64,000 nucleotides of DNA from Patescibacteria group bacterium (GCA_040390045.1 JAZJZC010000002.1:101113-165112); one strand, 5' to 3'. Counted from the stretch's first letter, positions 2,341 to 25,210 are shown. Notes: a model not told the origin generated them from the letters alone. Made by a program: numbers and translations.

Positions 2341-2810
2341 GAAATTTGTCCTTCACTGCCGATGGTTATTGTTGATGATGCGCTAGTTTCATCTGAGAGA
2401 ATAATGCTTGCCGGATTTGCATCTGCTGAGAGTTGTTCAAAATAAATATCGACCGGTCCGGTGGCGTCGATTGCTTGAGAAATATTTTTACCAACGTCAA
2501 TTGGAACGTTGAGTGAGTCAGTCGTGTTGTAGATTTTTCCTTGAAACATAATTAATTTCAAAAGTTTTCCGGAACTTATTTCCAAATGGACGCCGTGAGC
2601 CGCGCCGTCGGTACAATTGCCAAGACAGACGTTGTGCATGGATTGTGCTCGAGAGTGCTGAAGGGCCAAGACCAGCATGTCTCGTTGGTTACGGAAAGAA
2701 GAATTTTGGTAATCCCGCGTACTGACAAATAAACCGAGTGAAGCTACGACACCAAGAAGCGCAGTGACGATAATAATTTCTATGAGAGTGATTCCTCGTT
2801 TGTATTTCAT
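2328..2810 (-). CDS. minor pilin / pseudopilin
   Basis: Internal start MKYKRGITLIEIIIVTALLGV at 2810 gives a prepilin motif. The upstream 34 codons of the listed ORF would overlap the pilC-like gene, so the shorter start is preferred. Confidence 0.6.
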   Translation of the reverse strand: MKYKRGITLIEIIIVTALLGVVASLGLFVSTRDYQNSSFRNQRDMLVLALQHSRAQSMHNVCLGNCTDGAAHGVHLEISSGKLLKLIMFQGKIYNTTDSLNVPIDVGKNISQAIDATGPVDIYFEQLSADANPASIILSDETSASSTITIGSEGQISWTN

Positions 2811-2841
2811 CGTAAAAAGAAATTCGCCAAACATATGAGCT

Positions 2842-3927: not shown

Positions 3928-3930
3928 ATT

Positions 3931-5166
3931 TTATTCATGAACGACGCGTAAAATTTCTTCGAGCGTGGTGATGCCCTCCGCCACTTTTTTACAGCCGTCT
4001 TCCATCATGGTGGTCATGCCTTCTGCTGTTGCAATTTTTTTAATTTTGCTTGCTGGTGCTCGACGGATGATGGCCTCTTTAATTGCGTCATCTGCCACAA
4101 GTACTTCGTTGATGGAAATTCTGCCGCGGTAACCGCTGTTGCCACAGGACATACAGCCGGCGCCTCGGCGTATTTTTTTGCTATCTCTCAAAATTTTTTC
4201 AAGCGTTGTGCCCGCAAGATTTTTCTCTAGCACGGTTGGCAATGTAACTTCTTTTGCGCAGTGCTGGCAGATTTTCCGGACGAGCCTTTGTCCAATTGCT
4301 AAAGTTACCGTTGAGGCAATTAAGTATTCTTCGATGCCCATATCTAAAAGGCGTGGAAGGGTGGTGGCGGCATCGTTTGTGTGGAGAGTTGAGAGCACGA
4401 GATGCCCCGTCAGGGCGGCGTTGACGGCGACGGTTGCGGTTTCGGCATCTCTGATTTCACCAACCATAATAATATTTGGATCTTGGCGGAGGATGGATCG
4501 TAGGCCGTTGGCGAAGGAAAGTTTTGTTTGAGCATTGACTTGAATTTGTTCGATGTCTGAAACAGCGTATTCAATTGGGTCTTCAATAGTAATGACCGAA
4601 ACTTCCGGTGTGCTCAGCATTTTGACCAAGGTGTAAAGTGTCGTGGTTTTACCCGAACCTGTTGGACCAGTTGAGAGAATCATGCCGCTGGTTTTTTTCA
4701 TGGCGGTCGAAATTTTCTCGATGTCATTTTTACTGAAGCCGAGGTTTTCCAAACTGAAATTTTCAGCGCGGTCGGAGAGCAGACGCAACACCGCATTTTC
4801 GCCGTGGTAGGTCGGCACAATCGAAACACGGATGTCCACGATTTCGTTGGTATCTGAAAAAATGTGTCTGAAACGCCCGTCTTGAGTTGCCTGATGTTCA
4901 TCGGTTCGCAGACGTGCCAAAACTTTAATTCGCGAAATAATTTCGGAGTGAATTTTTTTGGGAAAGTCGTGCGCGTGCTGTAAGACGCCGTCAATTCGAA
5001 AACGGATTCGAACACTTTCAACGTTTGGATCAATGTGGATATCGGAAACTCGGGCGCCGTGCGCTTCTTCGAGAAGGCCGGCGAATAGATTGATAATGGA
5101 AAGATTTTCTCCGCGCAGAAGTTCTTGGGCGACACGTTCAATTTTTTCTGAAGAGGGGAGAGGCAT
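3931..5166 (-). CDS. GspE/PilB-family secretion ATPase (short form lacking N-terminal domains)
   Basis: Walker A GPTGSGKTT, Asp box, Walker B and His box (LVLSTLHTND) are present. The C-terminus has a tetracysteine cluster (CQHCAKE...CMSCGNSGYRGR). At 411 aa it is shorter than canonical PilB. Confidence 0.75.
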   Translation of the reverse strand: MPLPSSEKIERVAQELLRGENLSIINLFAGLLEEAHGARVSDIHIDPNVESVRIRFRIDGVLQHAHDFPKKIHSEIISRIKVLARLRTDEHQATQDGRFRHIFSDTNEIVDIRVSIVPTYHGENAVLRLLSDRAENFSLENLGFSKNDIEKISTAMKKTSGMILSTGPTGSGKTTTLYTLVKMLSTPEVSVITIEDPIEYAVSDIEQIQVNAQTKLSFANGLRSILRQDPNIIMVGEIRDAETATVAVNAALTGHLVLSTLHTNDAATTLPRLLDMGIEEYLIASTVTLAIGQRLVRKICQHCAKEVTLPTVLEKNLAGTTLEKILRDSKKIRRGAGCMSCGNSGYRGRISINEVLVADDAIKEAIIRRAPASKIKKIATAEGMTTMMEDGCKKVAEGITTLEEILRVVHE

Positions 5167-7969: not shown

Positions 7970-9109
7970 ATGGACAATCCTTTAAAAACTATTCTCAATT
8001 TGTTTAAAAAGTCCGGCGATTCCGTTTTAGGTATTGATATTGGCGCATCCTCGATCAAGGTGGTTCAAGTGAGAAAGAAAGCTGGGCAAGCGGTGCTTGA
8101 AACCTACGGTGAATTGGCGCTTGGACCCTACGCTGGTTTTGAAGTTGGTCGCGCTACCCATTTGCCGACGGATAAAATTATCGAAGCGATGGGGGATGTG
8201 CTTCGTGAAGCAAACACAACCACTAAACGATGCGGCGTTTCTATTCCTCTTTCTTCAAGTTTGGTTTCGCTTATTGAAATGCCTTCTATTCCAACAGCCC
8301 AGCTCGCGCAAATGGTTCCGCTCGAAGCTCGAAAATATATTCCGGTGCCGGTTAGTGAAATTACGCTCGACTGGTGGGTGATTCCCAAAGAAGAAAGCAA
8401 GGTGTTTACCTCAGAGCCGACTGACGCTCCACTCGGCGCATCGGCATTGAAGCCCACGACGGAAAAAATAAATGTTTTGGTTGTGGCTATTCACAATGAG
8501 GCCATCAATAAATATCAGGACATTGTTTCAAAAAGCATGTTGGACTCTTCTTTTTTCGAGATTGAAATTTTCAGTTCCATGAGATCAGTATTGCGTGAGG
8601 AAAATGCTACGGCGATGATTTTTGATTTTGGCGCTGGATCAACCAAGCTCTACATTATCGACCGCGGCATTGTCAGAGTTTCTCACACGATCAATCGCGG
8701 TTCGCAAGACATTACGCTTGCCATGTCGCGGGCGCTCAACATCTCAGTTCCGGAAGCAGAAAATATTAAACGAACTTCCGGTTTGGGTTATCAAGGTGGT
8801 GGTGTGGATATCACACAAGTTATTTCTGCGAGCCTCAACTTCGTGCTTTCTGAAGCCAGCAGAGTATTGGTGACGTATGAAAAACGCTACAACAAAACGT
8901 TAAATAGCGTGGTGTTGACGGGAGGAGGTTCCAACTTGAAAGGTTTTTTTGAAATGGCTAGAGACAATTTCCAAATTCCAGTGGTGATGGCTGATCCGTT
9001 TTCGCGACTGCAATCGCCGCCGTTTCTTGATCCGGTACTCAAGGGCGCTGGGCCAGAATTTGCCGTGGCGATTGGTGTGGCGTTGCGTCGGTTGCAAGAA
9101 ACTGCGTAA
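7970..9109 (+). CDS. pilM: type IV pilus assembly ATPase-like protein PilM
   Basis: N-terminal GIDIGASSIKVVQV actin-like fold motif. 379 aa. Pilus gene context. Confidence 0.75.
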   Translation: MDNPLKTILNLFKKSGDSVLGIDIGASSIKVVQVRKKAGQAVLETYGELALGPYAGFEVGRATHLPTDKIIEAMGDVLREANTTTKRCGVSIPLSSSLVSLIEMPSIPTAQLAQMVPLEARKYIPVPVSEITLDWWVIPKEESKVFTSEPTDAPLGASALKPTTEKINVLVVAIHNEAINKYQDIVSKSMLDSSFFEIEIFSSMRSVLREENATAMIFDFGAGSTKLYIIDRGIVRVSHTINRGSQDITLAMSRALNISVPEAENIKRTSGLGYQGGGVDITQVISASLNFVLSEASRVLVTYEKRYNKTLNSVVLTGGGSNLKGFFEMARDNFQIPVVMADPFSRLQSPPFLDPVLKGAGPEFAVAIGVALRRLQETA

Positions 9110-9120
9110 GGAAGTAGGTT

Positions 9121-9155
9121 AGCCCGCCTGAACGACTGAGACCGTTCAGTTGGGC
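9121..9155 (+). terminator. GC-rich hairpin after pilM (cccgcctgaacg...cgttcagttgggcggg)
   Basis: Perfect inverted repeat immediately downstream of the pilM stop. Confidence 0.5.
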
Positions 9156-9193
9156 GGGTAAGTTAGTAGGTAGAGGGTAGAAAAAACAAAACT

Positions 9194-9220
9194 AATGGCC
9201 GCGACTCTGTCGCGGCCATT
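9194..9220 (+). terminator. hairpin aatggccgcgactctgtcgcggccatt followed by a T-rich tract
   Basis: Inverted repeat plus atttatt; rho-independent terminator-like. Confidence 0.55.
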
Positions 9221-9251
9221 ATTTATTCGGGTTTCCCCGTTCCTTGTGTTC

Positions 9252-9284
9252 CCCGCCCGTACCGAAACGTTACGTTCGGGCGGG
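9252..9284 (+). terminator. third hairpin cccgcccgtaccgaaacgttacgttcgggcggg
   Basis: Inverted repeat that shares its cccgcc...ggcggg ends with the first hairpin. Confidence 0.4.
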
Positions 9285-9342
9285 CATGATCCATGTTCTG
9301 TGATTCTGGAAGTTATCCCCACCTCTCTTCTCTTCAAAAAAG

Positions 9343-9351
9343 TGCTACAAT
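9343..9351 (+). promoter_or_regulatory. extended -10-like element TGcTACAAT upstream of the giant ORF
   Basis: tgctacaat lies 11 nt upstream of ATG 9362. No clear -35 or Shine-Dalgarno sequence is present. Confidence 0.35.
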
Positions 9352-9361
9352 ACTGAATAAT

Positions 9362-12300
9362 ATGGACTTTTTCTATACAGAAAAAAGGAGATTTTTACGT
9401 ACGATTCTACCCCTGTTAATCTTTTCAATCCTTTTCTTTCCTTCTCCCTCGAATGCCTCGGGACCTTCGGTGAATACACCTTCGGCTAACGCTGTATTAG
9501 CTGATACTACTCCCTCAGTTCTCTCTACCGTAGCGCAACAAGTTTACACTGGGGTTAACTCGTTCTTCTGCTCTCTCGGAAGTTTGTTTGGTGCTTGTGG
9601 AACTACTAAAACTACTACCGTTGTTACACCTTCTCTTCCAACTGCTCCAGTTGGAACTCCGAACTCGTCTGCGAGCATCGGAGCCACTCCCACGATTGTA
9701 AACAACTACATCACTCAACCAGTAATTCACGAAACTACAGTTTCAAACACAGGTGGTGTTACCCAAGGACAACTTGCAGCAGCGCTCAACCAACTCGAAA
9801 ACAAACTTTCTTCTAAATTCTTTTCCATTGTTGGAACTCCGAACTCGTCTTCGAGCATCGGAGCCGCACCGGTTAACATTACGCAAATTATTCAAAATCC
9901 TCCGTTACCTTTTGCAACGAGGATTGATAAATTGGAAAATGTGATTCTCACTACACCTACAGTTTCAGGAGGTTCATTTAGTAATCCTACGATCTCAGGA
10001 GGTTCCATTGTCGGAACTTCAATTTCCGCTACCACCGGATCTTTTTCAGGTGATGTTACGATCTTGGGCAATCTCATTGCACCCTCAAGTGTCACAACGT
10101 ACGGAGCTTCGATTGCCCCTTATTTTACGGCGACCTCAAGTACGGCGACATCTACGTTTGCAGGAGGAATGAATGTGGCGGGGGATACGGGGCTTACGGT
10201 GTTACAAAATGGAAAAGTTGGGATTGGGACGGCGGCGCCGCGGTTCGGCTTATCTCTTGGTTCCATAACTAATGCAGGCACCGACACTCCAGATACCATC
10301 GATCTCGGCGGTACTTACAGCTCGACCCCAGGTTCCAACCTCAAGCTTCGCGCGTATTGGGACGGTGCAGTTCAATATGGAATTGGCGTTTCTGCCAATC
10401 AGATGGAATTCGTAACGACCGTCGGTTCCCAAGTTTGGTTTAACGCCGGTAGTGAGAAAATGCGCCTTACTCAAACCGGCAACCTTGGCATCGGCACCAC
10501 CACTCCCGCCGCCCGTCTTTCACTCAACCAACCTTCCACCACCGCTCTCGGCCTGTATCTTGCCGGCTTCTCGAACGCCACTGTCGACCTCTTCCGCATT
10601 TCCACTTCAACCCTCACCGCAACCTCCACAGCTTTTGTTGTTAACTCCAACGGCAAAGTCGGGATTGGGACGACGAGTCCGCAAGCAACTTTGGGTATGA
10701 CGGGTAGTATCGGTGTCAATTCGAGTCATTTGTTTTTGGCGACGAATGGAAATGTTGGCATCGGCACAACCTCTCCAACCCAACGCCTCTCCCTCCAAGG
10801 CTCCGCTCTTTTTAGTGGAGACCTAAACCTCGCCAACTTGACCGCCACCGGAACAATCTCAACTCCAAACCTCACCGTCACCGGCTTTGTAAACGGCGGC
10901 GCTCAATGTTTGCAAATCAACGCCAGTGGAGTGGTCTCCGGAACTGGAGGAGTCTGCGGAGGAGCGGGGCAAAGTCCAGCGGGAGTGACCGGAACCATGC
11001 AATACAACAACGGGGGAGTCTTCGGAGGTACCGCCAACATTTTCTTTGACTCAACAAACAGCAGACTTGGTATCGGTACTTCCACCCCAGGTACCCTGAC
11101 TGAACTCTACGCTTCCAATACCGGAACCACACTCGCTACTCTCACCGAACCATCTCTCTCCATCACTAACTCCGCCACTACCGTCAATAACTTTGAGTCT
11201 CTCTTGTTCCGCCACATCACCTCCACCGGTGCCCAACAAACCATGGCCCAAATCTCTGGTGTTAACTTGGTGCACACCAACGCGATCGACTCCGGAGCTC
11301 TTGCCTTCCTCACCCGAAACGCCGGAACTCTTTCAGAGAAAATGCGATTGACTAACGCCGGTCTTTTTGGAGTTGGCACGAGCACCCCCTCATCTCTCGT
11401 CGAGGTTTACGGATCCAATACTGGGACTTTACTCACAACCTTTGCCGACCCAACTCTTTCCATTACCAACCCCAATACCACTGTCAACAACTTTTCCACT
11501 TTGGCCTTCAGACACATCACCTCAACCGGAGCTGAAACTACTATGTCCCAGATCTCTGGAGTGAACCTCGTCCATACCAATGCTGCTGATTCTGGAGCGC
11601 TCGCATTCCTCACAAGAAACACTGGCACCCTTGCTGAAAAAATGCGCATCACCAACCAAGGTCTTGTCGGTATTGGCACCACTTCTCCTGGCCTTATCCT
11701 CACCGTCTCCGCCACATCTTCTCTTTCCAACCTCGGACTCTTTGATGTGGTGGCAGTACCAAGTGCTGGAGCTACTACTACAGCTCTGCGAGTAATATCG
11801 AGCGGCAACGTTGGCATCGGTACCAGTTCTCCATACTCTAAGCTCTCAGTCGCTGGCGAAGTAGTCGCCCAAAACTTCACCGCCACCTCAACCGCCACTT
11901 CCACCTTCGCCGGAGGAGTGGGCATCGGCACCACCTCTCCCCAAGCCAACCTCGGTATCCAAGGTTCAATCGGAGTCAACGCTTCTCAACTCTACCTCGC
12001 CGCAACCGGTAACGTCGGCATCAACACCACCAACCCCGGCGCCCTCTTCTCCGTCAACGGCACCGCTTCCACCTCTCTCCTCACTATCTCCGGTATCACA
12101 ACCGCTACTGGTCAATGTCTCCAAATCAATTCACTCGGAGTTGTCTCAGGAACCGGAGCAGTTTGTGGAGGTGCCGGCTCAGTTCCCGCAGGAAGTAGTG
12201 GAGCACTACAATTCAATAACGCCGGAGTGTTCGGAGGAGGTAATCTTTCTTGGGACAACACCAACAACATTCTCTCAACAACAGCTGGCACATTCTCTCT

Positions 12301-15300
12301 CAATTCTTTCACTGGTAATGTAGGCATTGGCACAAGCACTCCCTACGCAGCACTTTCTATAGCTGGAGCGTCAGGTGTGGTGGCTAATATTTTTACGGCA
12401 ACTTCAACAACCGCCACTTCCACCTTTGCCGGAGGAGTTGGTATTGGCACCACGTCTCCTTCCGCCACGCTTTCAATTTCCGGAGACACCTACACCTCAG
12501 GAAATCTTTCTGCCACCAACATAACCGCTTCAGGTACTGCCAGCTCAAGCGCTCTCACTGTCTCCGGTCTCGCCACTCTCCAATCACTGACCATCTCAGG
12601 AATTGCATCCACTGCACAATGTTTACAAATCAATTCTCTCGGAGTCGTCTCAGGCACTGGAACAACCTGTGCCGGAGGTTCGGGTTCAGGATCAACAACG
12701 CCACAAGGAGTTTCTGGAGCGTTGCAGTTTAACAATGGGGGAGTACTTGGTGGGGCGAATCCGCTCATTTGGGACAACATAAATAATATTTTTTCTCTTT
12801 CGGATCCGACGAAGTTGGGGATCGGAACAACGAGTCCGCAAGCAACAATTGGTATGGCTGGATCAATCGGGGTTAATTCTTCGCAGTTGGTTTTGGCTTC
12901 GAGTGGATTTGTGGGTATTGGGACAACAACTCCATCTGATTTCCTACATGTTTTTGCAGATAATGCTCATACACGGGCAATAATTCAAGCGACAGGATCT
13001 TTTCTTGCTGGGGTATCATTGACGACAGATACGAGTCAATGGACTATCGATAACAGAGGAACATTTGATGCTCCAAATGATCGCTTCCTTATTACTCACC
13101 AAGGTGTCGCTGTTCGAATGGTGATAGATAACACCGGTAACGTTGGTTTTGGTACTTCTTCTCCTTACGCTAAAATCTCTATCGGTTCTACTGCAACCGC
13201 TTCAACAACTCTCGCTCTTCGGCCAATTGCTTCACAAACAGGAAATATTTTAGATATATACAACACCTCAGGAGCTCTGACATCAGTAATGACTGCAAGT
13301 GGTAAACTTGGTATTGGTACTTCGTCACCTTTTGCAACTTTTGCTGTAAATCCAATAGGGGGTCAGGCTAGTAATCAGTTTGTCGTCGGCTCCTCAACTG
13401 CCACCAACTTCATCATCACAAATGGGGGACTTGTCGGTATTGGAACTACTTCTCCTTCCCAAGTTCTTTCTGTCAACGGTGGCGGACTTTTCAACGGCGC
13501 TCTTTCGGGGGTCACCAGTCTCGCAATGAACGGCAATCTTTCGGGTGTCGCCAACCTCACAACAACCGGAACCGTCACTTTCGCTAATATCAATGGCTCC
13601 GCCCAATGTCTCCATGTTGATTCATCAGGTAACCTCACCGGCACAGGTAGCGACTGTGGAGGAGCAGGTTCATCCCCAGGAAGCCCAGTGGGAGGAATTC
13701 AATTCAACACCGGAGGAGTCTTCACTGCATCAACATCACTGACCTTCGACAACACCACCACAGGTCTTTTGGGTATTGGTACCACCACTCCAACTTCAAG
13801 TATCGAAATCTACAAAACGAGCTCCGGTACAACATTAGCTACCTTTGCCGAACCAACTCTTTCCATCACCAACCCCAACACAACAGTAAACAACTTCTCA
13901 ACTCTTGCTTTCCGTCACATCACCTCAACCGGAGCAGAAACCACTAACTCTCAAATTTCTGGTGTCAACCTCGTCCATACCAACGCAGCTGACTCGGGAG
14001 CTCTGGCATTCCTGACCAGAAACGCGGGAACCCTTGCAGAAAAAATGCGCTTGACCAACGCCGGTCTTTTGGGAGTTGGAACTTCAACTCCAGGAAGTCT
14101 CATCGAAGTCTACGCTTCTGCTGCAGGAACCACTCTAACCACTCACGCCGATCCAACCCTTTCAATCACCAACAGTAACACCACGGTAAACAATTTCTCT
14201 ACACTGGCTTTCAGACACATCACTTCAACTGGAGCAGAAACCACCAACTCTCAAATCTCTGGAATAAACCTCATACATACGAACGCCGCCGACTCTGGTA
14301 TCATGGCCTTCCTTACCCGAAACGCCGGAACTCTTGCTGAAAAAATGCGCATCACCAACACCGGACTCGTAGGTATTGGCACCACTACTCCGTTTGCGCA
14401 ACTTTCTGTTAATCCGAACGCCATCGGTTCTGCCGCCGCTTTCATCATCGGCTCTTCAACTGCTACTAACTTTGTCGTGACGAACGGAGGTAATGTTGGA
14501 ATCGGTACCGCTGTCCCCGGTTCACTTCTTACTGTTGCCGGTCTCACCAGCACCACCAACCTCACCGTCTCCGGAATCACGAACGGCTCTGGACAATGTC
14601 TCCAAATCAATTCCGCCGGAGCAGTTTCAGGAACCGGAGCAGTTTGTGGAGGTTCAGGATCAGTGCCACTAGGCTCTACTGGCGCACTCCAATATAACAA
14701 CGGCGGTCTCTTTGCTGGAGCAGCTACTATGATTTGGGACGCCACCAACAACCGACTCGGCATTGGAACTTCTACTCCTTACACCGCACTCGGAGTTGCC
14801 GGAACCGTAGTAGCTGATAACTACATTGCTACTTCAACGACAGCTCCATCAGTCTTTACTTACGCTTCCACCACCGCTCTCACTGTCACCGGAGTCAACT
14901 CACTCTTTGTGAGCGGCGTCATCAACTCCGCCACCTCAACTGCTGCCGGTATCACAACGACAGATGCCAACACCACTTCAACCTTTGCTGGTTCACTTTC
15001 CGTCAACGGCACTGCTTCAACTTCACTCCTAACCATTTCCAACATTAGTAATGGAGCCGGACAATGTTTGCAGATTAATGCGACGGGACAAGTGACGGGG
15101 ACGGGAGCTGCTTGTGGAGGAAGTGGATCGGTGCCGGGAGGAAGTACAGGGGCAATTCAGTACAATACCGGCGGAGTCTTCACGGGAGGAAATTTGACGT
15201 GGGACAATACGCTGAATGCTTTGAACACCAACACCGCAATTCTTTCTCTTGGAGGCAACGCGCTAGCAGGAAGCTTTACGGCAACATCGACGACAGCGAC

Positions 15301-18145
15301 GAGTACCTTTACCGGCGCAACCTTTTCTGGAAATGTAGGAATTGGCACAACCACTCCTTCTGCCAAACTTACCATCGACAATCGTGGAAATGACACCAAT
15401 CCCTTTTCAATTACCACAAATGGATCAGTGGGAAACTACACGGCTACAAACACCGCGATGTTCATCCGAGATGCCGCGGGGACAGAGCTCATGAGAATAT
15501 TTGCGAGTGATTCAAATGGAGCACACTTTAACTCAGGTAACCTCTACATGGGGTATCAAGCAGGTGCGTCCAACCCAGTCGCTAACGTTTCAACATCCGG
15601 TTATTACAATACAGGTGTTGGATATCAAACGATGCTATCTAATACCAGTGGTGTCAGTAATACCGCTAATGGTTGGGGATCGCTTTTGAATAATACCAGC
15701 GGTTCATATAACGCAGGTTTCGGTATGTATTCTCTAGCTATAAATTTTACAGGTTCAAATAACGCCAGTCTTGGTGCATATTCTCAGGTGTACAACGGTT
15801 CAGCAACCAGTAGCACTGCTGTTGGGTATGCTGCTGGTTCTGGACTTGGAGGTGGATCACAATTTAACAACCAAGGTGGCACCTACGTCGGATACCAAAG
15901 TGGTTACAACCTAAGAACCAACTCGGACTACAACACCTTCCTCGGCTACCAATCAGGATATGGAGTAACCACAGGTAAAGATAATATTATTCTTGGTACT
16001 GCCACTTCTTCAACAGCCATCGCCAATCTCACTACCGGTTCACAAAACATTTTAATTGGAAGTAATATTTCCTTCCCATCTGCAACAGCCAGTGGTCAAC
16101 TTACTATTGGAAACATCATTTACGGAACGGGAAATACAGGAGCAGGATCAAATTTGTCGACGGGGAAGATTGGTATTGGTACTGCAAATCCTACCCAAAA
16201 ACTTGATATTGCTGGGAGTCTTGCAATACAAGGAGGAACAATTAATTTTGGTACTGGTTCTGCAACTTCAACTCTCACTTCAGTGAGCGGCAATCTTGGC
16301 ATCGGCACCACTACTCCCGGCGCAACCTTCGCGGTCACTGGTAGCGGTCTCTTCTCAACACAAGTGAGCACTCCAAATCTTTCTATCACCGGCATTACCA
16401 ACGGCGGAGCACAATGTTTGCAAATCAATGCACAAGGTTTGGTTTCTGGTACTGGTGGAGTCTGTGGAGGTGGGGGAAGCGGATCGGTTCCTGCGGGATC
16501 AGACGGAGCATTGCAGTTTAATAGTGGGGGAGTTTTCGGAGGAGGACATCTATTCTGGAACGACACAACAAATAATTTGACTACCGATTCAGGAGACTTC
16601 TTGCTGAATCCAACTGGAAATATTGGTATTGGTACTACGACAACAAATTCTACGTTCAAAGTGACTCTGCAAGGTTCACAAAATATTGTGGACGGTACGC
16701 TGTATCTACACTCTGGAGCGATACCAGGCGATAGTGCTACCGTCTCAGGGAGTGTTACATCAGCAGTGAGAGGTTTGCAACTGACTGGAGGAGGAGCTTT
16801 TGGTAGCAGTACCATAACCGCTTGGCACAATAGCGGTGGCGCGTTAGAAATCAATGGTAAGAGTACCGGTGTAGGAGCAACCACAGCTCAAATAACCCTA
16901 ATGCCGTCAACAAGTAGCTTTACTCCTTATCTATCTTTTAGCACAGGCGGTACTGCTTTTTCACTAACCGAAAGAATGAAAATTACTTCTACTGGCCGAA
17001 TTGGTATTGGTACCAGCACTCCCGGCTCTTTCTTCTCAATCCTGGATATCGCCAACTTCGCTACTTCTACCGGCGTTACTTTCTATAGAGGTCTCACCAC
17101 TCCCAACTTCATTGCAACCTCCTCTCTTGCTTCTGTCTTCCCATTCGCTTCCACTACCGCCATCACCTCAAGTGGTTCAGCATACTTTGCAACTCTCGGT
17201 GGTGCTGTCGGAATCGGCACAACTTCTCCTTCCTCGCTATTGTCTCTCACTCAACCCACCAACACCGAAGCCGGCGGCCTCTGGATCGCAGGCACCGACG
17301 GCGACTACCGCTCTATATATATATCTGACACCACAGGCGTTCTCTCCTTCGGAGGGGGAGACGCCGCCGGAGTCTACAACACCGCTACCCTCAATGACGC
17401 AGGAGCTTGGACTAATGCATCCGATAGAAAATACAAGGAAAACATTGCCGACTTAAACACCAAGTACACCCTCGATACCTTGATGAGCATCCAACCTCGC
17501 TTCTACACCATGAAAGGCACTGGAAAACCTCAGATTGGATTCATTGCTCAAGAACTTAAACTCGTTTTGCCTGAAGTCGTCGAAGGAGTAGATGGCTCCA
17601 TGGGAATCTCCTACGGAAACATGGTGGCACTGCTGGTAGAAGCCGTACAAGAATTAGCAAAAAAAGTCACGGGGTTTGCAAGTGAATTTACGACGAAGAA
17701 ACTTTGTGTGGATGACGTTTGTGTGACTCGCGACCAATTCAAAAAAATGATTGAAAATTCGGGAGCTACTTCAACAGGTTCAAGTGGTTCTGGAAGTGAG
17801 AGTGCCGCGCCCGCTGCGGGCGCGGCCTCCTCGACTCCTTCTACTGACATTACTCCACCAGTTATCACCTTGACCGGCGACAATCCAGCCACCATTTCTC
17901 TCGGTTCCTCATACATTGACCTTGGTGCAACTGTTACTGACAACGTTTCCCAAAACATCACAGCTGACCTTTTTGAAAATACTGTTGATACCACAACCGC
18001 GGGAACGTATTATGTAATTTATACGGCACATGATGCCGCGATGAACATTGCCACTTCGACGCGAAGTGTAGTTGTCAGTAATCCTGTTGTAACTCCCACC
18101 GCAACATCGACTGATCCCGTAGCAACCACCACGCCGACGGAATAA
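9362..18145 (+). CDS. giant secreted repeat fibre protein (beta-helix/tail-fibre-like) with C-terminal intramolecular chaperone autoproteolysis domain and terminal Ig-like domain
   Basis: Probable start MDFFYTEKRRFLRTILPLLIFSILFFPSPSNASG (signal peptide). About 2,900 aa of G/T/S-rich repeats (NVGIGTTSP; TATSTFAGG). The C-terminus has NASDRKYKENIADL...GFIAQELKLVLPEVV, resembling the S74 tail-fibre chaperone, then a PPVITLTGDNPATISLGSSYIDLGATVTDNV Ig-like segment. Confidence 0.75.
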   Translation: MDFFYTEKRRFLRTILPLLIFSILFFPSPSNASGPSVNTPSANAVLADTTPSVLSTVAQQVYTGVNSFFCSLGSLFGACGTTKTTTVVTPSLPTAPVGTPNSSASIGATPTIVNNYITQPVIHETTVSNTGGVTQGQLAAALNQLENKLSSKFFSIVGTPNSSSSIGAAPVNITQIIQNPPLPFATRIDKLENVILTTPTVSGGSFSNPTISGGSIVGTSISATTGSFSGDVTILGNLIAPSSVTTYGASIAPYFTATSSTATSTFAGGMNVAGDTGLTVLQNGKVGIGTAAPRFGLSLGSITNAGTDTPDTIDLGGTYSSTPGSNLKLRAYWDGAVQYGIGVSANQMEFVTTVGSQVWFNAGSEKMRLTQTGNLGIGTTTPAARLSLNQPSTTALGLYLAGFSNATVDLFRISTSTLTATSTAFVVNSNGKVGIGTTSPQATLGMTGSIGVNSSHLFLATNGNVGIGTTSPTQRLSLQGSALFSGDLNLANLTATGTISTPNLTVTGFVNGGAQCLQINASGVVSGTGGVCGGAGQSPAGVTGTMQYNNGGVFGGTANIFFDSTNSRLGIGTSTPGTLTELYASNTGTTLATLTEPSLSITNSATTVNNFESLLFRHITSTGAQQTMAQISGVNLVHTNAIDSGALAFLTRNAGTLSEKMRLTNAGLFGVGTSTPSSLVEVYGSNTGTLLTTFADPTLSITNPNTTVNNFSTLAFRHITSTGAETTMSQISGVNLVHTNAADSGALAFLTRNTGTLAEKMRITNQGLVGIGTTSPGLILTVSATSSLSNLGLFDVVAVPSAGATTTALRVISSGNVGIGTSSPYSKLSVAGEVVAQNFTATSTATSTFAGGVGIGTTSPQANLGIQGSIGVNASQLYLAATGNVGINTTNPGALFSVNGTASTSLLTISGITTATGQCLQINSLGVVSGTGAVCGGAGSVPAGSSGALQFNNAGVFGGGNLSWDNTNNILSTTAGTFSLNSFTGNVGIGTSTPYAALSIAGASGVVANIFTATSTTATSTFAGGVGIGTTSPSATLSISGDTYTSGNLSATNITASGTASSSALTVSGLATLQSLTISGIASTAQCLQINSLGVVSGTGTTCAGGSGSGSTTPQGVSGALQFNNGGVLGGANPLIWDNINNIFSLSDPTKLGIGTTSPQATIGMAGSIGVNSSQLVLASSGFVGIGTTTPSDFLHVFADNAHTRAIIQATGSFLAGVSLTTDTSQWTIDNRGTFDAPNDRFLITHQGVAVRMVIDNTGNVGFGTSSPYAKISIGSTATASTTLALRPIASQTGNILDIYNTSGALTSVMTASGKLGIGTSSPFATFAVNPIGGQASNQFVVGSSTATNFIITNGGLVGIGTTSPSQVLSVNGGGLFNGALSGVTSLAMNGNLSGVANLTTTGTVTFANINGSAQCLHVDSSGNLTGTGSDCGGAGSSPGSPVGGIQFNTGGVFTASTSLTFDNTTTGLLGIGTTTPTSSIEIYKTSSGTTLATFAEPTLSITNPNTTVNNFSTLAFRHITSTGAETTNSQISGVNLVHTNAADSGALAFLTRNAGTLAEKMRLTNAGLLGVGTSTPGSLIEVYASAAGTTLTTHADPTLSITNSNTTVNNFSTLAFRHITSTGAETTNSQISGINLIHTNAADSGIMAFLTRNAGTLAEKMRITNTGLVGIGTTTPFAQLSVNPNAIGSAAAFIIGSSTATNFVVTNGGNVGIGTAVPGSLLTVAGLTSTTNLTVSGITNGSGQCLQINSAGAVSGTGAVCGGSGSVPLGSTGALQYNNGGLFAGAATMIWDATNNRLGIGTSTPYTALGVAGTVVADNYIATSTTAPSVFTYASTTALTVTGVNSLFVSGVINSATSTAAGITTTDANTTSTFAGSLSVNGTASTSLLTISNISNGAGQCLQINATGQVTGTGAACGGSGSVPGGSTGAIQYNTGGVFTGGNLTWDNTLNALNTNTAILSLGGNALAGSFTATSTTATSTFTGATFSGNVGIGTTTPSAKLTIDNRGNDTNPFSITTNGSVGNYTATNTAMFIRDAAGTELMRIFASDSNGAHFNSGNLYMGYQAGASNPVANVSTSGYYNTGVGYQTMLSNTSGVSNTANGWGSLLNNTSGSYNAGFGMYSLAINFTGSNNASLGAYSQVYNGSATSSTAVGYAAGSGLGGGSQFNNQGGTYVGYQSGYNLRTNSDYNTFLGYQSGYGVTTGKDNIILGTATSSTAIANLTTGSQNILIGSNISFPSATASGQLTIGNIIYGTGNTGAGSNLSTGKIGIGTANPTQKLDIAGSLAIQGGTINFGTGSATSTLTSVSGNLGIGTTTPGATFAVTGSGLFSTQVSTPNLSITGITNGGAQCLQINAQGLVSGTGGVCGGGGSGSVPAGSDGALQFNSGGVFGGGHLFWNDTTNNLTTDSGDFLLNPTGNIGIGTTTTNSTFKVTLQGSQNIVDGTLYLHSGAIPGDSATVSGSVTSAVRGLQLTGGGAFGSSTITAWHNSGGALEINGKSTGVGATTAQITLMPSTSSFTPYLSFSTGGTAFSLTERMKITSTGRIGIGTSTPGSFFSILDIANFATSTGVTFYRGLTTPNFIATSSLASVFPFASTTAITSSGSAYFATLGGAVGIGTTSPSSLLSLTQPTNTEAGGLWIAGTDGDYRSIYISDTTGVLSFGGGDAAGVYNTATLNDAGAWTNASDRKYKENIADLNTKYTLDTLMSIQPRFYTMKGTGKPQIGFIAQELKLVLPEVVEGVDGSMGISYGNMVALLVEAVQELAKKVTGFASEFTTKKLCVDDVCVTRDQFKKMIENSGATSTGSSGSGSESAAPAAGAASSTPSTDITPPVITLTGDNPATISLGSSYIDLGATVTDNVSQNITADLFENTVDTTTAGTYYVIYTAHDAAMNIATSTRSVVVSNPVVTPTATSTDPVATTTPTE
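10900..16560 (+). repeat. intragenic protein-level repeat array (7x GxQCLQIN..VSGTG.VCGG modules; 4-5x ~100-aa LTEPSLSITN...EKMRLTNAGL units)
   Basis: Recurrent QCLQIN(A/S)xGxVSGTGxVCGG occurrences at about 10.91, 12.11, 12.62, 13.60, 14.59, 15.06 and 16.42 kb. Near-identical ~100-aa units at 11.08-11.70 kb and 13.78-14.40 kb. DNA copies have diverged at synonymous sites. Confidence 0.7.
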
Positions 18146-18189
18146 TTTCGAGGATTAGTATTTTCGCGAAATCTGGGGACTAGTGCGCA

Positions 18190-18220
18190 TAGTTGTTTTT
18201 TGGGTTTGGTATTATAATAG
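18190..18220 (+). promoter_or_regulatory. candidate promoter (TATAAT at 18213-18218) for the pilN/O/P-like genes
   Basis: Consensus -10 TATAAT lies about 50 nt upstream of ATG 18271. The -35 is poor. Confidence 0.3.
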
Positions 18221-18270
18221 TGAGATATAGGTTCTTGATACAATTTCACCCTTCTATATTTATATTAAAA

Positions 18271-18906
18271 ATGGAAACAAGATTTCAAACTTCGTTCATT
18301 CCCAAAAAAACTGTTCCTCAAAGAGTGGGGAATGGTAGACCTGAGTCAGTCAGTGTCGTGATGGTAGTTTCAGTGGTTATTTTTTTGCTAACGGCCGCGA
18401 GTGCGGGCGGAGTATTTGCCTACAAAAAAATTTTGATAGAAAGAATTAATAGCAAAAACAAGCAATTTGTGGACGCTAAAAATTCTTTCCAGCCTGGTTT
18501 TATCGAGGAATTAAATCGTCTTAATAAACGCATTGATTCTGCCAACACTATTTTGGCGAAGCATACTGCGGTATCTCCCATCTTTGATTTTTTAGCTGAT
18601 ACCACGTTGGCCACAGTGAAGTTCAGCAAATTTTCCTACGGCCTCGATGATCTCGGGGACGTGTCGTTGTCTATGACGGGCTTGGCCAAAAACTTTGACG
18701 CGGTAGCTCTTCAGTCCGATCTTTTTGGTAAGGAGCCGCGAATCAAAAACCCCGTTTTTTCTGATGTGAACCCAGATCAAAAGGGTAATATCGCTTTTAA
18801 ATTCAGCGCGTCCCTTGATCCCAATTTTATTTCTTATAAAAGTAATTTGTCAGCGTTGACCCCAACTGAGGTTACTGCGGCGCCACCGGCTGAAGTTGCC
18901 AATTAA
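18271..18906 (+). CDS. PilN-like pilus assembly protein (single TM, periplasmic coiled-coil)
   Basis: Start METRFQTSFIPKK; one TM helix (VVMVVSVVIFLLTAASAGGVFAY) followed by a coiled-coil. Position between pilM and pilB. Confidence 0.5.
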   Translation: METRFQTSFIPKKTVPQRVGNGRPESVSVVMVVSVVIFLLTAASAGGVFAYKKILIERINSKNKQFVDAKNSFQPGFIEELNRLNKRIDSANTILAKHTAVSPIFDFLADTTLATVKFSKFSYGLDDLGDVSLSMTGLAKNFDAVALQSDLFGKEPRIKNPVFSDVNPDQKGNIAFKFSASLDPNFISYKSNLSALTPTEVTAAPPAEVAN

Positions 18907-18910
18907 TTAT

Positions 18911-19588
18911 ATGAGTATCCTTGTTCCAATCATTTTAATAGTTTCATCCATCGGAATATTTTTCGGTTACATTAATCCGGCCTATACAGCGGTGACGGGC
19001 AGTTCTGATCTGACAGAAAAAAGCGTTAAGGAGTTGCAGTCGGTTGAACAAGATTATGTGGATGCTTTGAATAAAACCGCACAAATTGAAACCGTCAGGG
19101 AAGGTTTGCTCACCAAATTTAACACGCTCTCCCTTGAGAACCGAGAAAAAATTTTTAAATTATTGCCAGACCACATTGATTCGGTTCGCTTGATTATTGA
19201 TACGAACAACATCGCTTCACGATACGGTATGTCGCTTTCTGATATTAAACTTTTTGCCAATAGTATTGTTGATAAAAATAATCCAGCAGGAGCCACAGGC
19301 TCGGCGCAAAATCCTAATGCCAACACCGCCAATGCTCCTCAGCAAATAGGGCCAGATAGTAGTTTGTATGATTCGGTAAAATTAGGTTTTAGCATGTCGG
19401 GGCCGTATGAAAATTTCTTACTGTTTTTGTCGGATGTTCAAAAAAGTTTGCGTATCGTTGATATTACTTCGATTGCTTTTGAAAATTCTGATACTTCTGC
19501 GCCGCCAGCTGGTTCTAAAGTTGTGCAAACTTCCGGTCCTGAAATTTATAAGTATTCAATTAATTTAAGAACTTATTTTCTAAAATAA
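18911..19588 (+). CDS. PilO-like pilus assembly protein
   Basis: Start MSILVPIILIVSSIGIFFGY (single TM) then a coiled-coil. Immediately follows the PilN-like gene. Confidence 0.45.
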   Translation: MSILVPIILIVSSIGIFFGYINPAYTAVTGSSDLTEKSVKELQSVEQDYVDALNKTAQIETVREGLLTKFNTLSLENREKIFKLLPDHIDSVRLIIDTNNIASRYGMSLSDIKLFANSIVDKNNPAGATGSAQNPNANTANAPQQIGPDSSLYDSVKLGFSMSGPYENFLLFLSDVQKSLRIVDITSIAFENSDTSAPPAGSKVVQTSGPEIYKYSINLRTYFLK

Positions 19589-19592
19589 TTAG

Positions 19593-20003
19593 ATGGAAAC
19601 CTACCAACAACATAAAAAGCTTTTCCTGTTCGGAGGGATTTTCCTCGTTCTGGTTATTTTATACTGGTTGTTTTTTTCTGGTGGGGGAGATACAGCGCCG
19701 AATGTTCCCACGAGTCCTACTGGCGGGTTGGTCACAGAGGTTGCCGAAAGTTCTTCCGATCAAATTGTAGGGCGCGAACTTCTTAATTTGCTTGCCGAAA
19801 TTCAAACCATCTCTTTGGACTTTTCCATTTTCGAAAATCCCGTGTTTTCGAGTTTGCAAGATTGGAGTAAGCCAATCGAGCCACAGCCGTTAGGTCAAAC
19901 CCTTGGTCGGAAAAATCCTTTTTCTGATTTCAGTAGCGATGCCAGTGTGGCTGGCGCGCGAGCGGCGCAACAAGTTGCGCCGGCGAATGCTCCCACTCAG
20001 TAG
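19593..20003 (+). CDS. small TM protein (PilP-like?)
   Basis: 136 aa with one TM helix. Operon position after the PilN/O-like genes and before pilB. Confidence 0.35.
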   Translation: METYQQHKKLFLFGGIFLVLVILYWLFFSGGGDTAPNVPTSPTGGLVTEVAESSSDQIVGRELLNLLAEIQTISLDFSIFENPVFSSLQDWSKPIEPQPLGQTLGRKNPFSDFSSDASVAGARAAQQVAPANAPTQ

Positions 20004-20033: not shown

Positions 20034-21740
20034 ATGAGCGTTTTAGACATACTCGTTGAAAAAAAACTAATCGCTGCCTCGGACATTCCGCAAATCAAAC
20101 AAGAAGTTGATAGGGCTGGAGGCAACCTTGACTCAGTGCTCGAAAAGCGCGGTATATCTCCTGCTGAAATATTGGCAAGTAAGGCAGATTACCTCGGCAT
20201 TCCTTTTATGAGTCTTGATGGCGTGACCGTACCTTTCGATATTTTGAAATACGTTCCAGAAGAATCGGCGGCCTACTATAAATTTGTGCCGATTAGTTTA
20301 AAAGAGGGCGTGCTTGATGTTGGTATTGTTGATCCTGACAATATCGAAGCGCGTGACGCTCTGAATTTCATTTCTACGAAAATTGATTTGCCTTTCAAGC
20401 TTTTTATTATTTCTCAGAAAGATTTTCAACGAGTGGTTGAGTCATATAAAGGATTATCCGGTGAAGTGACGCAGGCGCTTTCTGAACTCGAAACAGAACT
20501 GACTACCGACGACGCCTTGGAGCTCGGTGAAGACAAAGGTGACGGTGAAACTCGTATTATTGAAGATGCGCCGGTTACTAAAATTGTGGCTACGATTTTG
20601 CACTACGCCACCGAAGGCGACGCGTCGGATATTCACATTGAAAATGTAGGGGATAAGGTGCGCGTTCGCTTTCGAGTGGATGGAGTTTTAAATACCAGCC
20701 TCTTGCTTCCGATCAAGGTCTATTCGGCCGTGATCGCCCGTATCAAAATACTTTCCAACATGCGTCTCGATGAAAAACGTAAACCACAAGACGGTCGTTT
20801 TTCCGCAAAAATCGAAGGCCGTAAAGTCGACTTTCGTGTTTCTTCTTTGCCTGCGTATTATGGAGAAAAAATTGTAATGCGAATTCTCGATGCTGAAAAG
20901 GGAGTCAGCCCTATTGATAAAATGGGTCTTTCCCCGAGAAATTTGAAATTGCTTCGAGATGCGATCAACAAACCGTACGGCATGATTTTGATTTCAGGTC
21001 CGACCGGTTCTGGTAAATCAAGTACGCTCTACTCGATGCTAAACGAGGTGGATCGCGAGAAAAAAAATGTGATTTCGCTCGAAGATCCAGTTGAATACAA
21101 TATTGCTGGCATGAACCAATCTCAAGTGCGTCCGGAAATCGGATACACCTTTGCCAACGGGTTGCGTTCGATTTTGCGACAGGACCCCGACATTATCATG
21201 GTGGGAGAAATCCGCGATAAAGAAACGGCACTTCTCGCTGTGCAAGCGGCGCTCACGGGACATTTGGTGCTTTCCACTATTCACACTAACAATGCTGCTG
21301 GAGTAATTCCACGTTTGATTGACATGGGAGTTGATCCGTACTTGATTGCGCCGACCTTGATTCTCGCTATTGCTCAGCGATTGGTCAGTCTCATTTGTCC
21401 GGGATCAGGTAAAGAGGTTCCCATTTCAGGCAGTTTGAAAATGATGATGGATAAAGGATTTGAAGATTTACCTGCTGAGTTTAAGAAAGAGGTACCGACG
21501 AGCACTACGGTTTCTGAGTTGTGCCCAACACCCGAATGTCCAAAAGGCACGCGCGGTAGAGTGGCGGTATTTGAAATATTGCAGATGAGCGCTGCGCTTG
21601 AACAGGTGATTTTACACAATCCGACAGAACCCGAATTATTTAAAGTTGGGCGAAAGCAGGGGATGTTTACGTTGAAAGAAGACGCGTTAATTAAGGCGTT
21701 ACGGCAGGAAATTCCAATGGAAGAAGTTAATAAGTTGTAA
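20034..21740 (+). CDS. pilB: type IV pilus assembly ATPase PilB
   Basis: N-terminal GSPII_E_N-like domain, Walker A GPTGSGKSST, His box LVLSTIHTNN and a C-terminal Cys cluster. 568 aa. Confidence 0.85.
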   Translation: MSVLDILVEKKLIAASDIPQIKQEVDRAGGNLDSVLEKRGISPAEILASKADYLGIPFMSLDGVTVPFDILKYVPEESAAYYKFVPISLKEGVLDVGIVDPDNIEARDALNFISTKIDLPFKLFIISQKDFQRVVESYKGLSGEVTQALSELETELTTDDALELGEDKGDGETRIIEDAPVTKIVATILHYATEGDASDIHIENVGDKVRVRFRVDGVLNTSLLLPIKVYSAVIARIKILSNMRLDEKRKPQDGRFSAKIEGRKVDFRVSSLPAYYGEKIVMRILDAEKGVSPIDKMGLSPRNLKLLRDAINKPYGMILISGPTGSGKSSTLYSMLNEVDREKKNVISLEDPVEYNIAGMNQSQVRPEIGYTFANGLRSILRQDPDIIMVGEIRDKETALLAVQAALTGHLVLSTIHTNNAAGVIPRLIDMGVDPYLIAPTLILAIAQRLVSLICPGSGKEVPISGSLKMMMDKGFEDLPAEFKKEVPTSTTVSELCPTPECPKGTRGRVAVFEILQMSAALEQVILHNPTEPELFKVGRKQGMFTLKEDALIKALRQEIPMEEVNKL

Positions 21741-24760: not shown

Positions 24761-25210
24761 CATGTAACACGTAACATGGAGCATGGAACAGAAGAGTCAA
24801 ATACGGAGAAAACATTCCACCAGAAGCTCCAGTTAAAAATTGATGAGTATGTCCACGGGGTGTATGCACTTAGTAAAAAATTCCCAAAGGAGGAAGCGTA
24901 TGGCATAACCTCTCAGCTAAGGCGAGCAAGTCTTTCTGTCCCGCTTAATTACATTGAGGGGTATGCGCGACAGAGGGATAAGGTCTACAAAAATTTTCTT
25001 GAAATTTCCTACGGTTCCCTGAAAGAATCCTTATATCTGATTAAGTTTTCTTATGACGAAAATCTAATTTCTAAAGAACAATATGAAAAATATATTAGTC
25101 TAGGAGATGAAATAGGCGCAATGATATGGTCAATTTTGCGCAAAATCTAGTCTTCTGGCCTCTTTATCCCCCCTTGTTGCATGCTACGTGCTCCATGTTC
25201 CATGATTCAG
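24761..25210. mobile_element. R2-family palindromic element carrying a four-helix-bundle gene
   Basis: Left end catgtaacacgtaacatggagcatggaacag (24761-24791). Right end atgctacgtgctccatgttccatgattcag (25181-25210) contains the reverse complement of the same acatggagca / catggaaca motifs. Confidence 0.5.
24776..25150 (+). CDS. four-helix-bundle protein (TIGR02436-like, the '23S rRNA intervening-sequence protein' family)
   Basis: KKFPKEEAYGITSQLRRASLSVPLNYIEGYARQ matches the family's conserved core. The N-terminal MEHGTEESN residues are partly encoded by the repeat end. Confidence 0.6.
   Translation: MEHGTEESNTEKTFHQKLQLKIDEYVHGVYALSKKFPKEEAYGITSQLRRASLSVPLNYIEGYARQRDKVYKNFLEISYGSLKESLYLIKFSYDENLISKEQYEKYISLGDEIGAMIWSILRKI

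Follow-up and report, generated by a model that had tools for sequence, protein, structure and literature searches.

The mosaic adhesive trimer (MAT) proteins of Bdellovibrio, described by Caulton et al. in 2024, are made with a signal peptide and exposed at the cell surface; they assemble into trimeric fibres whose tips can be swapped (PMC10769870). Thirteen of the 21 end with an S74 domain, and self-cleavage has been demonstrated for Bd3182 (PMC10769870). On how ultrasmall episymbionts find and hold their hosts, the only leads are type IV pili and unnamed 'surface adhesins', known from the few Saccharibacteria in cultivation (PMC11665869). Here we describe a giant fibre gene in a 64,000-nucleotide stretch of a Patescibacteria genome (GCA_040390045.1, JAZJZC010000002.1:101113-165112), referred to throughout as the window. 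The gene encodes a protein of 2,927 residues and, within a type IV pilus locus, is flanked by pilM and a pilN-like gene.

From its sequence relationships, the description that suits the protein best is that of a Patescibacteria relative of the MAT and phage-type S74 fibres. We put at roughly 60% the probability that it belongs to a large, fast-recombining family of Patescibacteria surface fibres and acts as an S74-processed adhesin, its gene having been inserted at an operon boundary and its product being no part of the pilus machine. The domains are established; homology suggests that the chains would trimerise, cleave themselves, be displayed at the surface and bind a host.

Domains of the fibre protein

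The open reading frame (ORF) that opens at ATG 9293, which residue numbers here follow, holds 2,950 codons. ATG 9362 is the likelier start, because it yields a textbook signal peptide (n-, h- and c-regions from M24, predicted by inspection) and matches the public record: the product is 100% identical to NCBI MES2087839.1, encoded on a contig of 189,921 bp, whose public annotation is merely "immunoglobulin-like domain-containing protein". Apart from this shift of the start, the ORF, signal peptide and NVGIGTTSP-type repeats reported in an earlier reading of this DNA (the original prediction) were confirmed. The adjoining PilM is MES2087838.1, and its closest relatives come from metagenome-assembled genomes (MAGs) of Candidatus Taylorbacteria and Paceibacterota; the source is a Taylorbacteria-like MAG of the Patescibacteria (candidate phyla radiation, CPR).

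Assignment to the S74 fibres is carried first by the C-terminus. A search with PF13884, proposed earlier for a suspected autoproteolytic chaperone domain, returned 42.0 bits against a cutoff of 22 over aa 2710-2763. The Ser-Lys dyad of the S-D-x-x-x-K core, here S2710-D-R-K-Y-K2715 (Ser codon 17420-17422, Lys codon 17435-17437), is invariant in 20 aligned family C-termini, where the Ser and the Lys(+5) are two of just five invariant residues (alignment A1). S74 is not the end of the protein. About 150 residues lie beyond it, consisting of a Cys-x4-Cys hairpin that is kept as a mini-module between S74 and Ig in many homologs, a low-complexity linker, an immunoglobulin (Ig)-like domain and a Pro/Thr-rich tail with neither a transmembrane (TM) segment nor a sorting or anchor signal. 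The whole Ig-like domain is 3' of the predicted cleavage site. A cut after Ser2710 would give a fibre chain of 2,655 aa (262 kDa) and a fragment of 240 aa and 25.1 kDa, in place of the ~35-kDa released product that had been foreseen.

The Ig-like module after the chaperone also stands as first proposed. Besides its PF16403 match (Table 1), it was modelled with confidence by AlphaFold2 (AF2) as part of a monomer, at predicted local distance difference test (pLDDT) scores of 78-95 (65-89 for S74). Foldseek matches with the C-terminal model were limited to this domain, and comprised the bacterial surface Ig domains BT2262, 2kpn, SlpX, SbsB, SraP and Rib. The proposed structure check was thus rewarding for S74 and Ig, but returned low confidence for the shaft.

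Comparison with solved structures leads to the MAT fibres. Whole-protein phmmer against the PDB found 8oml (Bd1334; E 4e-4) and 8ond (Bd2133; E 6e-3), both from Bdellovibrio bacteriovorus. The shaft part of a profile built from the 20 C-terminal sequences matched 8ond at E 5e-12, along with 8oml, 8ojn (Bd3182), 8on4 and 8ol4, and the S74 part of the same profile matched 8jov (a putative tail fibre), 6f45 (tip of the phage S16 long tail fibre), 7dc3 (myelin regulatory factor, MyRF) and 8hqz (T5 L-shaped fibre pb1) at E 1e-8 to 3e-14. PHROG tail-fibre families likewise match the shaft (phrog_9942, 1.7e-35; phrog_18345, 3.2e-33), and together with the MAT structures they bear out the earlier label of a tail-fibre-like protein.

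Such matches also raise the reading that a prophage or tailocin once sat in the chromosome and that the gene is what remains of its tail fibre, the more so as 270 phage records match the C-terminus. We regard this as very improbable. These 270 matches are confined to the S74 part, with the Ig tail left uncovered in every case; cultured phages give distant, partial matches (25-39% identity), and a search of IMG/VR returned no relative of the fibre. A Sec signal peptide would be needless for a phage virion fibre, and hundreds of chromosomal paralogs exist across Patescibacteria. As the original prediction had stated, the 64 kb contain no phage structural, terminase or integrase gene; capsid, tail, lysis and transposase genes were likewise not found there, and the Pfam-annotated genes of the window are all pilus or housekeeping genes. 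Composition points the same way, GC content at third codon positions (GC3) being native: 0.435 in the fibre gene and 0.35-0.46 in the neighbouring pil genes. Overall the gene has 49% GC against ~43% in its neighbours, with a negative GC skew, and the excess lies at codon position 2 because the protein is rich in Thr, Gly, Ser and Ala. A foreign origin by composition was therefore rejected, GC3 equalling that of the neighbours, and a recent foreign origin is not indicated.

Thr, Gly, Ser and Ala make up 51% of the residues in the shaft, which holds 28 copies of a capping-loop-like motif, G-x-[VLI]-G-[IVF]-G-T-x-x-P-x-x-x-L. Four ~100-aa modules, mutually 72-75% identical, form two tandem pairs (11069-11668 and 13772-14371); the best PDB match of this module was MAT Bd1334, at only E 0.24. 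Seven ~100-aa Cys-pair modules share Q-C-L-Q-I-N…G-x-V-S-G-T-G-x-x-C with a constant Cys spacing of 16 residues. Against the PDB these matched designed beta-trefoils alone, which we treat as chance, and they have no solved or Pfam counterpart. Their first half, searched with a narrow pattern (QCLQIN…GxVSGTGxxC), occurs in this protein alone among 240 retrieved family members; the second half (P.G..G.LQYNN.G.F.G..WD..N.RLGIGT) is common to the homolog P0021, and looser Cys-loops (C-x2-N/D…C-G) lie directly 5' of the S74 site in other homologs.

The fibre family in Patescibacteria

Of the candidates scored in the family search, 759 proteins passed E<1e-10; architecture was read from the best 120, which are 1,600-5,000 aa long. 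Their named sources are nearly all Patescibacteria (Taylor-, Kaiser-, Wolfe-, Campbell- and Harrisonbacteria, Paceibacterota and Minisyncoccota). PF13884 and PF16403 occur together in ~45 of these 120, and wherever both were located (26 of 26 homologs) the S74 domain comes first and one or two Ig domains close the protein. In a second search the named proteins with S74 followed by Ig include Gottesmanbacteria, and the S74-only matches include phage and Chitinophagia. Other family members swap the ending for LVIVD, Laminin_G, Hint/intein or other modules. The ending of S74 and then Ig is absent from all matching phage records and from solved S74 structures. An Ig-like module behind the chaperone had been called unusual, and compared with phages and Bdellovibrio MATs it is, but within the Patescibacteria family it is common. 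None of the papers found in our literature search connects S74 or intramolecular-chaperone domains with CPR/Patescibacteria.

No single relative accounts for the protein. The best non-self match covers 12% of the query at 41% identity, and 15 consecutive 200-aa segments have 13 different best relatives (29-62% identity), so the protein is a mosaic. At the other end, an early hydrophobic segment is present in 77 of 100 complete homolog N-termini, in 41 of those after a cytoplasmic region, and many paralogs have an uncleavable cytoplasmic-domain-plus-TM anchor in place of the signal peptide. These segments and anchors suggest that the N-terminus is the cell-proximal, membrane-associated end.

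The extreme length and the low-complexity G/T/S/A composition would also suit a general envelope or matrix fibre, that is, a fibrous coat, an S-layer-like fringe or a means of particle or biofilm attachment on a cell that has no outer membrane. Ig-like fold matches that include S-layer and cell-wall proteins (SlpX, SbsB, Rib, SraP) and the presence of several paralogs per genome, some of them tandem, lend this reading some weight. We nevertheless consider it unlikely. The characterised S74-chaperoned fibres, namely phage fibres and spikes and the Bdellovibrio MATs, are receptor-binding (PMC10769870), and extreme mosaicism with no orthology between close genomes is a better fit to diversifying recognition.

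Several other features of the homologs were recorded (P-numbers denote family members, L-numbers related loci). Intein/Hint and NYN domains lie inside some giant homologs (P0008, at 2221-13539 of L030; P0012; P0106). Tandem Laminin_G_3 genes come after fibre genes in L001 and L030/L031, and a gene of the 23S_rRNA_IVP / bAvd-like family stands directly 3' of giant fibre genes in L002 and L030/L031. The LVIVD module (PF08309) is used on fibre homologs P0014, P0022, P0023, P0031 and P0033 and on a pseudopilin of the window. Many paralogs start with a cytoplasmic HTH_17-like motif (…AS.L.GY…YL..LCR…) and have a TM segment at residue ~100-200, an odd arrangement that puts a DNA-binding-type fold on the inner end; such N-termini were seen in L001 (10001-), L002 (1546- and 10001-), L030 (2221-) and L032 (10001-).

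Position between pilM and pilN

With PilM as the probe, species-representative genomes yielded 25 loci and metagenomes a further 38. Wherever downstream DNA was readable, in 22 genome loci and 24 metagenome loci (~46), pilN comes directly after pilM, at a gap of 38-150 bp in 19 of the 22 and of 38-280 bp in 21 of the 24. L005, a high-GC locus, is the sole genome locus with no pilN found after pilM, and has other, unannotated ORFs there and no fibre homolog. In none of the ~46 related loci are pilM and pilN separated by a fibre gene. On both flanks of the fibre gene the window is collinear with L003, L020 and L004 (70-73% PilM identity), and the synteny comparison that had been suggested identifies the gene as an insertion into an otherwise contiguous order. 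The insert of ~9.05 kb sits between the pilM stop and a pilN promoter-like element. In L003 and L020 the block GCACATAG…GTTTGGTAtTATAAT is found 10-25 nt past the pilM stop, and in the window it is 3' of the fibre gene (Table 1); a TATAAT box lies just 5' of pilN in the spacer of nearly all relatives. No operon has been split, since the conserved promoter-like box before pilN is retained 3' of the insert.

Other DNA has entered the same spacer elsewhere: an IS200-like Y1 transposase in L025 (11154-11891), an unannotated 270-aa ORF in L012 (11361-12170, minus strand) and an extra 0.5 kb in L017 (11102-11602). From these comparisons, the pilM-pilN spacer is probably the boundary of two transcription units and a recurrent insertion site. 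No direct repeats flank the insert, and in this respect it shows no mobile-element signature. Given its native GC3, an intragenomic move of the fibre gene appears more likely than a recent foreign origin. Most likely, an insertion or rearrangement specific to this lineage put the gene at a permissive operon boundary.

The end of pilM at 9109, the three hairpins behind it and the box TGCTACAAT are present as the original prediction described them. Hairpin 2, with its stem at 9193-9221, is probably the pilM terminator, strong and, by the scan, bidirectional. In the minimum free energy fold of the whole spacer (RNAfold) an arm of hairpin 1 pairs with an arm of hairpin 3 around this terminator, a complementarity that could permit alternative structures. 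Hairpins 1-3 are not repeated elsewhere in the window, and the leader region 9122-9289, hairpin 1 included, matches no Rfam family. No Shine-Dalgarno sequence precedes ATG 9362, and because the -10-like box ends 10 nt before this codon, the 8.8-kb mRNA would be leaderless or near-leaderless if the promoter is used. The terminator scan found no terminator between the fibre gene and pilN. A transcription unit of its own, as had been claimed for the gene, is plausible from the terminator motif after pilM and the -10 box, but the accompanying description of a fibre inside a pilus operon needs qualifying, the pilN box being retained downstream.

The original prediction went on to suggest an attachment organelle functionally coupled to the pilus. 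On that account the fibre would be co-regulated with the pilus, the pilus would bring the cell to its host and the fibre would lock on, and the placement would be selected. The gene does lie inside the pilus locus, and with no terminator before pilN transcription could continue into pilNOPB. That fibres and type IV pili may act together has been raised as a possibility by the MAT authors (PMC10769870). Saccharibacteria require type IV pili for host association. A recurrence in the nearest clade can be added: in L003 and L033, the two closest relatives (73% PilM identity), a giant fibre gene on the same strand ends ~6.6 kb 5' of pilM and is followed by genes for dockerin- and cohesin-domain proteins.

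We nonetheless judge the coupling to be quite unlikely. A fibre gene between pilM and pilN is unique to the window, as set out above. The upstream fibre genes of L003 and L033 are not orthologs of the window gene (29-51% identity, in shared domains alone, and that of L003 has no S74), and the window has no homolog of any gene that lies between those fibre genes and pilM. Within 10 kb of the locus, no fibre gene is present in L020 (72% identity) or in ~15 more distant genomes whose flanks are complete over that length. Five family members elsewhere sit among housekeeping genes: after gatB (two), between an ABC transporter gene and asnS, after a PaaX-like gene, and after rpoB-rpoC-dnaG-rpoD. Because of these five, and because the link in L003/L033 is a ~6.6-kb neighbourhood, the fibre-pilus linkage is loose at most. 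A strong terminator parts the fibre gene from pilM, and pilN has its own conserved promoter-like box. Finally, the fibre has no prepilin leader: PF07963 finds no match in it and finds one in eight other window proteins, and without an N-terminal methylation motif the fibre cannot be built into the pilus.

The island 5' of pilM in the two relatives (L003 3-9298, L033 2-8980) contains fibre, beta-lactamase-like or IS200-like transposase, dockerin plus Big_6, and cohesin genes. The cohesin-dockerin pair near fibre genes hints at a surface-anchoring system. We read the arrangement, from gene content, as a variable surface-protein island beside the pilus locus of one small clade that may have been rearranged in the window genome.

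Table 1. Features of the fibre gene and its flanks (window positions)
Feature	Position	Strand	Evidence
pilM (pilus assembly ATPase-fold protein)	7970..9109	+	PF11104 E 3.9e-34; TIGR01175 149.7 bits, cutoff 133
Hairpin 1, GC-rich, GCCCGCC...GGGCGGG arms	9122..9159	+	RNAfold -21.9 kcal/mol; unique in window
Hairpin 2, 13-bp stem, T tracts on both strands, terminator-like	9193..9229	both	Scan hit on both strands; RNAfold -23.1 kcal/mol
Hairpin 3, GC-rich, arms complementary to hairpin 1	9244..9289	+	RNAfold -18.7 kcal/mol
Extended -10-like box TGCTACAAT	9343..9351	+	Read from sequence, function inferred; 10 nt 5' of ATG 9362
Giant fibre gene	9362..18145	+	ORF 9293-18145, 2,950 codons; 2,927 aa from ATG 9362
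Signal peptide or signal anchor MDFFYTEKRRFLRTILPLLIFSILFFPSPSNA|SG, aa 24-55	9362..9457	+	Inspection; hydrophobic window at residue 11
Non-repetitive region, short coiled-coil-like stretches	to ~aa 300	+	Translation
Fibre shaft, ~aa 300-2700 (~2,400 residues)	10190..17419	+	Motif map, repeats
Cys-pair modules	10811-11116, 12020-12325, 12524-12829, 13511-13816, 14501-14806, 14969-15274, 16319-16624	+	Motif map
Peptidase_S74 / intramolecular chaperone domain, aa 2710-~2795	17420..17674	+	PF13884
Cys-x4-Cys beta-hairpin + helix KKLCVDDVCVTRDQFKKMIEN, ~aa 2803-2822	17699..17758	+	Alignment A1; model strands 244-253, helix 254-263
Ig-like domain (Bact_surface_Ig-like / DUF5011), aa 2858-2928	17864..18076	+	PF16403 51.8 bits, cutoff 27
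Pro/Thr-rich C-terminal tail, aa 2929-2950	18077..18142	+	Translation
Promoter-like block GTGCGCATAG...TTTGGTATTATAAT	18183..18218	+	Junction comparison with L003, L020
pilN-like gene (probable), right flank of insert	18271..18906	+	FQTSFIPKK cytoplasmic motif, one TM segment, external domain
pilO-like gene (marginal)	18911..19588	+	PF04350 24.3 bits, cutoff 22, E 3.8e-5; conserved position
Small single-TM protein (136 aa), 'pilP' position	19593..20003	+	Orthologs in only some relatives
pilB (extension ATPase, MshEN domain)	20034..21740	+	PF00437 E 2.5e-116; PF05157

The pilus locus and its neighbours

The window holds a complete type IV pilus locus with housekeeping genes on both sides. Its order is pilM, the pilN-like and pilO-like genes, the small TM protein gene and pilB, with a response regulator, pilT and pilC, and it further holds three pilins, pilD, minor pilins and a PilX-like gene. 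A secretin (PilQ) was not found in the window. The identity of PilM is secure, both family models being above threshold. The gene at 18271..18906 is a probable pilN; its protein matches no family model, PF05137 is the top family among its orthologs, nine of 21 giving weak matches that are all sub-threshold (best E 0.0027), and the ortholog profile found no match in the PDB. The orthologs conserve the FQTSFIPKK motif, one TM segment and a fixed place after pilM (alignment A2). The PilO assignment is marginal and just passes the PF04350 cutoff. PilN/O/P-like genes had been proposed to resume at 18271; the first two hold at these strengths, but neither Pfam nor NCBIfam detects a PilP signature in the third protein and its identity as PilP is unsupported.

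A 23S_rRNA_IVP / bAvd-like four-helix-bundle gene (24776-25150) separates pilC from the first pilin gene. L003 and L020 lack it there, their gap being 126-155 bp against 462-573 bp in the window, and for that reason it is a second lineage-specific insertion in the pilus locus. On the minus strand, at 355-5166, there is a second, divergent pilus-like set comprising a T2SSE ATPase, a PilC-like protein and a 661-aa pseudopilin with the LVIVD repeat. An 810-aa ORF at 51380-53812 has no Pfam match and a GC3 of 0.285 against ~0.42 in its neighbours.

Discussion

The working model that we draw from these data starts with export by Sec through the N-terminal signal peptide, with the N-terminal end kept near the membrane. 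The C-terminal S74 chaperone would unite three chains and template the folding of the ~2,650-residue shaft into a trimeric beta-helical fibre. Ser2710 and Lys2715 would then cut the chain, freeing the 25-kDa fragment of chaperone, Cys hairpin, Ig-like domain and Pro/Thr tail and exposing the distal tip. The resulting fibre would be an adhesin, probably directed toward the host cell of a presumed episymbiont. Extrapolated from the 550 Å of Bd3182 (PMC10769870), its length would be roughly 150-200 nm. At the level of the locus, the gene would bring its own terminator and promoter context and leave the pilN promoter intact.

Some of the evidence weighs against this model of a surface adhesin at an incidental position. 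The AF2 monomer is of low confidence outside the C-terminal domains, with pLDDT <45 in the shaft and 46.8 in the Cys-pair module. Only 13 of 119 Patescibacteria homologs match the N-terminal 300 aa, often in their interior, and this region is not conserved even within the family; the ~130-aa beta-rich domain that comes straight after the signal peptide in MATs and is their hallmark was not found in the fibre, the MAT N-terminal sequence not having been compared. It also should be considered that the promoter and terminator calls are consensus or motif matches, and that the episymbiont lifestyle is presumed. Finally, with fibre genes ~6.6 kb from pilM in L003 and L033 there is a pilus neighbourhood at the level of the clade, and to call the position incidental may be too strong.

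More tentatively, and as a possibility to be held with some reserve, Patescibacteria may rely on a recombining arsenal of giant S74 fibres for host recognition, the released fragment of S74, Cys hairpin and Ig may have a job of its own, and the fibre captured beside pilN-O-B may be co-expressed by read-through. If so, these fibres would correspond in cells to the receptor-binding proteins of phages and to the Bdellovibrio MATs, and the lineage-typical ending would be a novel form of processing. The released fragment could, for example, hold the three C-termini at the cell wall until folding is complete, or act as a secreted factor.

The fibre adhesin class itself is already known; new here are the lineage-typical extension past the cleavage site and the unique mosaic shaft. 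The comparison ties giant Patescibacteria proteins labelled 'hypothetical' or 'Ig-like' to experimentally characterised prey- and host-recognition fibres, and by naming the catalytic residues and the expected cleavage products it supplies concrete candidates. It also illustrates how gene position alone can mislead, the spacer of pilM and pilN being in all probability an operon boundary that accepts insertions.

Several known systems resemble the fibre in part. Pilus adhesins such as minor pilins and PilY1-type proteins resemble it in being encoded in a type IV pilus locus with a presumed role in attachment. Unlike them it has no prepilin methylation motif, and the locus has minor pilins of its own as well as the 661-aa LVIVD pseudopilin. 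YadA-like trimeric autotransporters and giant adhesins are likewise very long, repetitive and probably trimeric surface fibres, and JGI automatic names of some fibre homologs use such labels. The window fibre, however, has no C-terminal beta-barrel translocator, belongs to a cell with no outer membrane to hold one, and gives no Pfam match to Hep_Hag or YadA families.

The ICA domain of MyRF offers a precedent for an internal S74-type domain (7dc3, E 5e-9) with sequence beyond the cleavage site, where cleavage parts two functional halves. MyRF differs in being a eukaryotic transcription factor whose downstream part is a membrane anchor and whose released part is the N-terminal trimer, whereas no TM segment follows S74 in the window fibre. 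Comparable, too, are the T5 pb1, K1F endosialidase and phage S16 fibres, in which an S74 domain with a Ser-Lys dyad closes a trimeric fibre (8hqz and 6f45, E 1e-8 to 3e-11); PHROG tail-fibre families match the window shaft as well. The window fibre differs in that it belongs to no phage, is far longer and bears a Sec signal peptide, and in the phage matches S74 terminates the protein.

The S74 subgroup of MATs, exemplified by Bd3182, shares with the window fibre a chromosomal gene, a signal peptide, a shaft of G-x-G-T/N-x-x-P-x-x-x-L loops, a C-terminal SDxxxK S74 domain, mosaicism with tip-swapping, many paralogs and an owner that lives on other bacteria, which for the Patescibacteria is presumed. 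There are also differences. The Patescibacteria fibre is ~3x longer (2,927 aa against ~1,000) and its owner has no outer membrane; some of its paralogs start with a signal peptide and others with an HTH-like cytoplasmic domain and a TM segment; it carries seven Cys-pair modules with no solved or Pfam counterpart; and in it S74 is followed by a Cys hairpin, an Ig-like domain and a Pro/Thr tail.

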